From sequence record OM632670.1: DNA of 64,000 nucleotides; one strand, written 5' to 3'. The DNA comes from Escherichia phage BEU44. A program made the position numbers and the translations under genes. The notes under the pieces are model-generated. The model was not told the DNA's origin, did not search any database, and was given only the letters and a program-made list of their open reading frames with translations. Below, piece by piece: positions 22,977 through 23,333 of the stretch. Positions within the stretch are counted from its first letter, which is position 1. Each line of letters opens with the position of its first letter.

Positions 22977-23333
22977 TTATTTATTTCCTTTAGATTTAGA
23001 ACGCTTAGCCCTTCTTCTCTGGTTCTCTTGGTGAGTAACCAATTCAAGATGTTCAGGGTTACAGCACAGACGATTATTACAGAGATGGTCTACTTGCATC
23101 TTATTGGGGATATAACCATGATAATGGGTATAGGCAATAATGTGAGTTGCAGAGGTAACTCCATTCACGGAAATCCTGCCATATTGCCCACCGCGTCCAT
23201 TACCTGAATGTGAACCAGTCCAGATGTGACAGAGGCTAGGCTGACCATTAACGGTATAGCCTAAGTCCTGTAATTTGATTCTGGCCTGAATACGTTCGAT
23301 AAGTGTCTGACGACGATTCTTTTCTTGAGCCAT
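22977..23333 (-). CDS. HNH endonuclease (free-standing)
   Basis: 118 aa; DHLCNNRLCCNPEHLELVTHQEN HNH core; ATG at 23331-23333. Confidence 0.6.
   Translation of the reverse strand: MAQEKNRRQTLIERIQARIKLQDLGYTVNGQPSLCHIWTGSHSGNGRGGQYGRISVNGVTSATHIIAYTHYHGYIPNKMQVDHLCNNRLCCNPEHLELVTHQENQRRRAKRSKSKGNK

Follow-up and report, generated by a model that had tools for sequence, protein, structure and literature searches.

Phage homing endonucleases and their relatives

The endonucleases I-HmuI and I-HmuII of the Bacillus phages SPO1 and SP82, like the Seg and Mob enzymes of phage T4, nick or cut the DNA of a competing phage and favour the markers that flank their own genes, by intron-less homing or marker exclusion. 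I-HmuI is intron-encoded and 174 amino-acids long, its HNH_3-type catalytic domain being accompanied by extra DNA-binding modules. In I-PpoI, a 163-residue enzyme from a eukaryotic rDNA intron, His98 is the general base, Asn119 a metal ligand, and Cys100, Cys105 and His110 belong to the first of two zinc sites; a C-terminal tail mediates dimer swapping. Enzymes of the I-PpoI type cut rDNA. The His-Me finger fold is also the origin of the SMAD MH1 domains, and inactive derivatives normally lose the general-base His, the metal-binding Asn and the zinc ligands. Other small phage HNH proteins include T7 gp7.7, whose free-standing gene sits among virion genes, and the HK97 gp74 type, which belongs to PF01844 and lies beside the terminase and portal genes.

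In phage N4, a free-standing HNH gene, gp22, is located between gp21 and gp23 and typifies the “N4 gp22-like” HNH proteins of the Schitoviridae. It is called a putative homing endonuclease in database annotations, and both the N4 record and a roseophage paper of 2009 already list the gene under this description. Literature searches on gp22, N4-like HNH, CRISPRi-ART and gp7.7 returned annotation-level mentions only, and no functional study of gp22 was found among the papers searched.

The window analyzed here is a 64,000-nucleotide stretch of Escherichia phage BEU44 (OM632670.1), an N4-type coliphage genome of the genus Enquatrovirus. A preliminary description, made from the sequence alone, had singled out a 118-residue HNH protein between unrelated genes, had counted it with a polymerase-inserted HNH as one of two homing-endonuclease-like genes, and had proposed that it could nick a neighboring locus in related phages or act as a nuclease in packaging or repair. 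The gene is an already known one, N4 gp22, and a member of a very common family. Its product is best described as an ancient resident, a non-essential and probably still active nuclease, possibly kept for competition between co-infecting phages.

The gp22 gene and its surroundings

The ORF is genuine and runs from ATG to TAA on the minus strand (Table 1). The surrounding 3.6 kb match five Escherichia phage BEU records at 100% identity and phage N4 at 98.2%, and its product displays 100% identity over 118 amino-acids with N4 gp22 (YP_950500, “endonuclease”). It is the same protein at the same locus, with no difference between the two. Pfam analysis places gp22 in HNH_3 (PF13392), with E=8.6e-20 and 70.6 bits against a gathering threshold of 24.8 bits, covering profile positions 2-46 of 46, while the match to the I-PpoI zinc loop family PF05551 is marginal (28.8 bits vs a cut-off of 27). 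The PHROG family phrog_1872, “endonuclease”, is matched with E=5.5e-46, making gp22 a member of the N4 gp22 orthologue group. PADLOC returned only its generic “homing endonuclease” model, an NCBIfam search of gp22 gave zero matches, and no Rfam family was matched on either strand between 20000 and 27000.

Table 1. Coordinates of gp22, its predicted elements, its neighbors and the compared features. Positions refer to the window unless another sequence is named.
Feature	Position	Strand	Description
gp22 CDS	22977-23333	-	118 aa; ATG at 23333, TAA at 22977-22979; from the ORF list
HNH_3 domain of gp22	23016-23150	-	residues 62-106; Pfam PF13392
Catalytic and zinc motif	23022-23090	-	D82-H83-x-C85-x4-C90-x-N92-x2-H95 ... 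N104; invariant in 63 members; in register with I-PpoI
Cys35 codon	23229-23231	-	putative fourth ligand of the structural zinc; invariant in the family
C-terminal basic helix	22986-23033	-	residues 101-116, HQENQRRRAKRSKSKG; predicted in the AlphaFold2 model
N-terminal helix	23286-23315	-	residues 7-16; opens with nearly invariant R7 R8
gp21	23335-23559	-	74 aa; stop TAG 1 nt ahead of the gp22 ATG; GC 32.0%
gp23	22806-22976	-	56 aa, hydrophobic; phrog_23946; ATG abuts the gp22 TAA (TAAATG); GC 28.7%
Terminator-like hairpin and T run after gp20	23593-23615	-	consensus scan; putative upstream edge of the gp21-gp23 cassette
N4 gp25 homologue	20408-21550	-	“HNH endonuclease” in RefSeq and PHROG (phrog_1314)
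Large terminase	34616-36250	+	~11 kb from gp22, opposite strand
Polymerase-inserted HNH gene	9929-10543	-	204 aa, NUMOD4 and HNH_3 (Pfam); comparator
rIIA	1-2526	-	overlaps shortened gp47 (2517-2858)
Deletion in KP8-like metagenomic contig L099 (Logan SRR32829898)	4001-4266 of the contig		1,528-bp deletion between 16-bp repeats

The neighbors of gp22 are indeed unrelated to it: gp21 and gp23 on either side and, beyond them, the SPFH protein gp20 and the ATPase gp24. Homologues of gp21 were seen in Enquatrovirus only. The GC content of gp22 (42.3%) is typical of the genome (41.2% for the window), as opposed to that of the strongly AT-rich gp21 and gp23, which look like newer arrivals around an older gp22. 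Throughout the Enquatrovirinae, both genes flanking gp22 differ lineage by lineage and the order RNAP2-Hoc-...-HNH-...-ATPase is constant. gp22 persists amid superinfection-exclusion and membrane genes that undergo turnover.

Several features of the region may be noted beside gp22. Between 21500 and 25200, 11 terminator-like hairpins were counted where 1.7 would be expected in shuffled sequences; most are on the minus strand, between small gene cassettes, and the segment resembles a series of accessory cassettes, each with its own terminator. The N4 gp25 homologue exhibits only DUF2201_N metallopeptidase-like and VWA-like DUF2201 domains in Pfam, and no HNH, so that its database label looks like a propagated misannotation. 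The rIIA gene (N4 15460-17985) is displaced from its N4 site between gp32 and rIIB, and the junction lies here between 17254 and 17255. This gp32-rIIB junction devoid of rIIA is contiguous only in BEU42 and BEU51 and is split in 13 other Enquatrovirus records; the displacement may be a true translocation or may have arisen artefactually during assembly or rotation.

A predicted single-domain nuclease with one putative zinc site

A database search yielded 116 relatives of gp22, of which 112 are 100-170 amino-acids long; the remaining four are two truncated proteins (84 and 65 residues), one of 103 and one of 187 residues. Many of these relatives are encoded on contigs of 70-76 kb, about as long as an N4-like genome. 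Residue conservation was measured in an alignment of 63 family members, in which C35, W38, G44, Y51, H64, G73, D82, H83, C85, C90, N92, H95, L96 and N104 are invariant (63/63) and R107 nearly so. Most of the putative catalytic and zinc-binding residues are gathered in the motif DHLCNNRLCCNPEHLELVTHQEN (residues 82-104). When the family profile was compared with the PDB, I-PpoI alone was matched, weakly (E ~0.1), and the alignment pairs H83 with H98, C85 with C100, C90 with C105, H95 with H110 and N104 with N119 of that enzyme. A PDB search with the gp22 sequence alone gave chance matches to plasminogen kringles (E ~0.5), I-PpoI being reached only by the family profile. Cys35 would be the counterpart of I-PpoI Cys41. 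The gp22 sequence harbors no Cys or His past N104 that could form a second zinc site; strictly speaking, gp22 therefore falls outside the His-Cys box enzymes, which have eight conserved Cys/His residues in two zinc sites.

The AlphaFold2 model of gp22 (mean pLDDT 92.5) comprises strands 79-83 and 96-100 followed by helix 101-116. This basic C-terminal helix likely contacts the DNA backbone. Among solved structures, the best match to the model is I-PpoI (PDB IDs 1A73 and 1EVW; Foldseek E=6e-3, probability 0.99, 114 aligned columns, with a TM-score of only 0.48), followed by I-HmuI (probability 0.97), and SMAD MH1 domains are also matched. Among predicted viral structures, the model resembles many phage HNH proteins, including T7 gp7.7. 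With its general-base His and metal-binding Asn conserved, gp22 is, on the evidence of alignment and model, a predicted His-Me finger (beta-beta-alpha-metal) nuclease. It appears as a bare single-domain enzyme, with one I-PpoI-like zinc site, an N-terminal R-R helix and the basic C-terminal helix, and lacks a separate DNA-binding module such as NUMOD or AP2.

These features set gp22 apart from each of its relatives. In the alignment with I-PpoI, the two active-site residues (His and Asn) and the first zinc site correspond position by position to those of gp22, but gp22 is shorter, possesses neither the second zinc site nor the C-terminal dimer-swapping tail, and is not intron-encoded. It has in common with I-HmuI and I-HmuII the HNH_3-type catalytic domain, which in gp22 is free-standing and accompanied by short basic helices rather than by the additional modules of I-HmuI. 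Over 70 residues, gp22 is 37% identical (E=1e-11) to T7 gp7.7, which is also small and free-standing, and this stretch contains the C-x-W-T-G, Y-G-R and HNH/zinc motifs. Residue 4 of gp7.7 aligns to residue 35 of gp22, so that gp7.7 has no counterpart of the N-terminal R-R helix, which falls outside the gp7.7 and T7-like alignments because these begin at about residue 35. The location of gp7.7 among virion genes is a further difference.

Other candidate relatives were rejected. T7 gp5.3 has no similarity to gp22 on comparison. The HK97 gp74 type, although it is likewise a small phage HNH nuclease, differs in its family (PF01844 instead of HNH_3) and in its position, since gp22 lies far from the terminase gene and is absent in many relatives that carry the same terminase. 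A T4 endonuclease VII-type resolvase is not supported either, no endonuclease VII being found among the 50 PDB fold matches listed.

The polymerase-inserted HNH gene as a positive control

The other HNH gene of the preliminary description is also real. It splits a family-A DNA polymerase into two parts (10446-12497 and 9136-9966). Its product belongs to the same Pfam family as gp22 and to the same genome, but the NUMOD4 domain, the polymorphism and the recent exchange are features of the polymerase HNH only. Identity between gp22 and this protein is only 26% (E=4e-4), too low for recent paralogues. Within Enquatrovirus, the polymerase HNH is present in 11 records and absent from four (two records of N4, 3HA13 and OLB145). 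Comparison with the distant phage Pollock, based on the slices “PolN” and “polHNH_full”, revealed 91% identity and a pS of 0.27 for the HNH, against 52% and 0.72 for the flanking polymerase. The polymerase HNH is a mobile homing gene that has been recently transferred. The tests used can hence see mobility, and gp22 shows none on that time scale. The dN/dS of the polymerase HNH is also low (~0.12), so that purifying selection alone does not tell whether a nuclease is selfish or domesticated.

Sporadic homing genes are common in the N4-like family beside the resident gp22. Moo19 carries an unrelated HNH insertion between its exonuclease and primase genes (L097, 31599-32114), and unrelated HNH insertions have been described inside the ATPase and RNAP2 genes of ZC03 and ZC08 (PMC5418858). 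The gp22 homologue of ZC03 was considered as the ATPase-splitting element of that report and rejected, as it is located before dcd.

Vertical inheritance and conservation

The gp22 protein is identical and its gene occupies the same locus in all 15 Enquatrovirus records. At the dCMP-deaminase-HNH-rIIA locus of Litunavirus, the best-sampled genus, 70 of the 75 matching records cover the region of the gp22 homologue in one piece; the exceptions listed comprise a pair of truncated records and one phage from a different genus. One copy per genome is found in the 221 phage records that have a gp22-like gene, and the homologues are 45-90% identical.

Protein identity of gp22 reaches 90% with Moo19, 87% with KP8 and 89% with Jgk1, against 60-74% for RNAP2, the ATPase, the vWA protein and dCTP deaminase. 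In these three comparisons, pS is 0.54-0.79 for gp22 and 0.53-0.77 for backbone genes, and pN is 0.075 against 0.16-0.28. The synonymous sites of gp22 are thus as saturated as those of the backbone, which leads to rejecting recent transfer as the cause of its 87-90% identity to Moo19 and KP8. The same holds for the “outlier” pairs across the family, those that seem too similar: pS is backbone-like in every one of them. Lateral transfer should leave a gene more similar than its flanks at synonymous sites, and gp22 is not. Furthermore, the GC content of each homologue tracks that of the genome in which it resides. For 24 of 33 loci, the closest gp22 relative belongs to the same backbone cluster, defined by a gp24 identity of 60% or more, where 4.2 are expected and the maximum in 2000 shuffles was 12.

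Compared with the whole Moo19 genome, gp22 ranks first of the 67 window proteins, its 90.0% identity being on a par with that of the major capsid protein (88.8%) and of the large terminase (89.9%). Within Litunavirus, its dN/dS is 0-0.06, similar to that of the DNA polymerase. Across the family, identity levels off at ~62%, even between phages whose backbone proteins share as little as 20-40%, and at this deep level the distances of gp22 and of the backbone are weakly correlated (Spearman 0.2-0.4); given this plateau and weak correlation, no gene-tree argument is made at that depth. Overall, gp22 is inherited vertically, fixed within genera and unusually well conserved.

Absence, relocation and deletion across the family

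The comparison of relatives suggested in the preliminary description, under which universal conservation at one position would point to a core function, gives two answers. Within genera gp22 keeps one position, in all 15 Enquatrovirus records and in 70 of 75 at the Litunavirus locus; across the family it is variable, being found in 221 records against 478 for the neighboring gp24 ATPase, so that about half of the N4-like phages are without it. The proportion varies with the host: the gp22/gp24 counts are 17/68 for Escherichia, 6/97 for Vibrio, 90/112 for Pseudomonas, 23/29 for Klebsiella, 17/17 for Achromobacter and 14/14 for Pectobacterium. Among 80 IMG/VR N4-like loci fetched with the ATPase profile, 74 have a complete RNAP2-gp24 interval; gp22 lies inside it in 20, elsewhere within 10 kb in one, and is not found within 10 kb in 53.

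At least four positions are occupied by gp22 homologues: the RNAP2-gp24 interval, just before rIIA, just before dcd and just after rIIB. In Litunavirus, of the Migulavirinae, the homologue lies 3 nt before rIIA and has a 157-nt overlap with the upstream gene. In the sister genus Luzseptimavirus (Ka3), ~392 bp of the Litunavirus sequence are replaced by 99 bp, and the complete Ka3 genome has no gp22-like sequence anywhere. The homologue of Zicotriavirus lies directly before dcd, and that of the roseophage subfamily directly after rIIB. In the Pseudomonas phage vB_Pae1396P-5, the homologue is a 114-residue GTG-initiated ORF (3995-4339 of that record); there, and by their feature lists in some other Litunavirus records, only a shortened HNH or a hypothetical protein is annotated.

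The closest presence/absence pair found involves Gamaleyavirus, which lacks gp22: in its member SP5M, the Hoc-like gene is separated from the ATPase by three small ORFs only. An uncultivated phage (L102, the same IMG/VR contig as L012), whose gp24 is 85% identical to that of Gamaleyavirus ECBP1, harbors a gp22 homologue immediately after the terminator of its Hoc-like gene (8721-9068). The spacing is 482 bp in this phage against 146 bp in Gamaleyavirus, and the difference is the 348-bp ORF. A natural deletion has also been found, in the KP8-like contig of Table 1: the first 50 codons of the gp22 homologue are fused to the end of a downstream small gene, and the catalytic part is gone together with five downstream genes, just upstream of the ATPase. 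Thus, presence/absence differences occur as clean single-ORF indels between sister lineages and were not seen within the genera compared. gp22 is not a core gene: it is dispensable, has been lost several times and relocated a few times.

Possible roles of gp22

The homing-endonuclease reading of the preliminary description stands in part. The free-standing gene, the I-PpoI and I-HmuI folds and the variation of presence and position across the family fit it; vertical descent, fixation in genera and the lack of a transfer signal do not. gp22 may still nick a neighboring locus in related phages. A packaging role is not supported, as the terminase gene lies ~11 kb away on the other strand and complete genomes of relatives have no gp22.

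The explanation we prefer, with somewhat less than even confidence, is that gp22 descends from homing endonucleases, is still an active nuclease and earns its persistence in mixed infections. Beyond the gene identity, fold class, catalytic-residue conservation, inheritance pattern and dispensability described above, we infer nuclease activity, a target and a benefit in competition. The gene would have originated as a free-standing homing-type endonuclease gene and become an old resident, transmitted vertically, fixed in genera, occasionally relocated or deleted and unneeded for the basic life cycle. Strong purifying selection would have kept the enzyme intact: where gp22 persists, every catalytic and zinc residue is retained, and it evolves more slowly than the RNA polymerase of its own phage. 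The protein would be translated from the tightly packed gp21-gp22-gp23 cassette of the early/middle region. By its register with I-PpoI, His83 would activate the attacking water and Asn104 would hold the catalytic divalent metal, with Cys35, Cys85, Cys90 and His95 holding a structural zinc in the manner of that enzyme. gp22 may then cut or nick a specific site in unprotected DNA, which would usually belong to a co-infecting related phage that is devoid of gp22 or has a sensitive site; such an attack is the most likely reason for selection. By analogy with I-HmuI, I-HmuII and the T4 Seg and Mob enzymes, it would benefit the gp22-carrying genome and the accessory genes around gp22, in a region that also contains superinfection-exclusion genes.

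Some of the results count against this explanation. Polymorphism within genera and a transfer signal, the usual marks of an active homing gene, are both missing. The conservation, on a par with terminase and capsid proteins, could equally mean a role in the phage's own DNA metabolism. Finally, the lack of a separate DNA-binding module makes site specificity uncertain.

A role in the phage's own DNA metabolism is the strongest of the alternatives, although we consider it unlikely. A domesticated nuclease acting on its own DNA might make nicks that serve replication initiation or terminal processing, debranch replication intermediates or assist in forming genome ends before packaging. This would suit the first rank of gp22 among the window proteins compared with Moo19, a pN threefold lower than in RNAP2, the ATPase or the vWA protein, the polymerase-like dN/dS in Litunavirus and fixation within genera, as well as its constant location in the replication and nucleotide-metabolism module, on the same strand. 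Against it, about half of the N4-like genomes have the same replication and packaging genes without gp22, including Gamaleyavirus and the complete genome of Ka3, and a natural deletion variant exists. The terminase gene is remote and in opposite orientation, relatives already have an annotated candidate resolvase of the RuvC-like (RNase H-like) type, the homologue of N4 gp46, and the immediate neighbors of gp22 are accessory genes with turnover. In a broader form, of which we are just as doubtful, gp22 would no longer be selfish and would act on a highly conserved substrate, either a phage site or structure involved in replication or end formation, or a host locus. If domestication were true, lineages without gp22 would have to compensate otherwise, and the terminase- or capsid-level conservation of a “putative homing endonuclease” would be explained.

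The host locus, taken alone, is improbable. In that case, gp22 would cut a conserved chromosomal site to aid host takeover. I-PpoI, whose relatives cut rDNA, is the closest solved fold, and the ~62% identity plateau extends across phages of Escherichia, Pseudomonas, Achromobacter, Erwinia and roseobacters; both count in its favor. Many N4-like phages of the same hosts do without gp22, however, and N4 is not known to degrade host DNA.

It is still less probable that gp22 is an ordinary, currently mobile selfish homing gene that recently invaded its locus. The “putative homing endonuclease” annotations and HNH_3 membership invite such a reading, which is contradicted by a synonymous divergence equal to that of the backbone in every comparison, by a GC content matching the resident genome and by the absence of gp22 polymorphism among the 15 Enquatrovirus records, in tests that do pick up the mobility of the polymerase HNH. 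That gp22 is a catalytically dead DNA-binding protein or regulator, on the precedent of the SMAD MH1 domains found among its fold matches, is scarcely credible, the general-base His, the metal-binding Asn and the zinc ligands being invariant in 63 sequences.

Implications for N4-like phages

The two HNH genes of the window differ: the polymerase HNH is a homing gene observed while still mobile, and gp22 is an old resident. As they are unlike cases, counting “HNH genes” overstates the mobile-element load. The terminase-level conservation and clean vertical history of gp22 are mildly unexpected, in contrast to the truly mobile HNH 13 kb away. gp22 is a convenient candidate for studying why some free-standing nucleases escape the cycle of invasion, fixation and decay.
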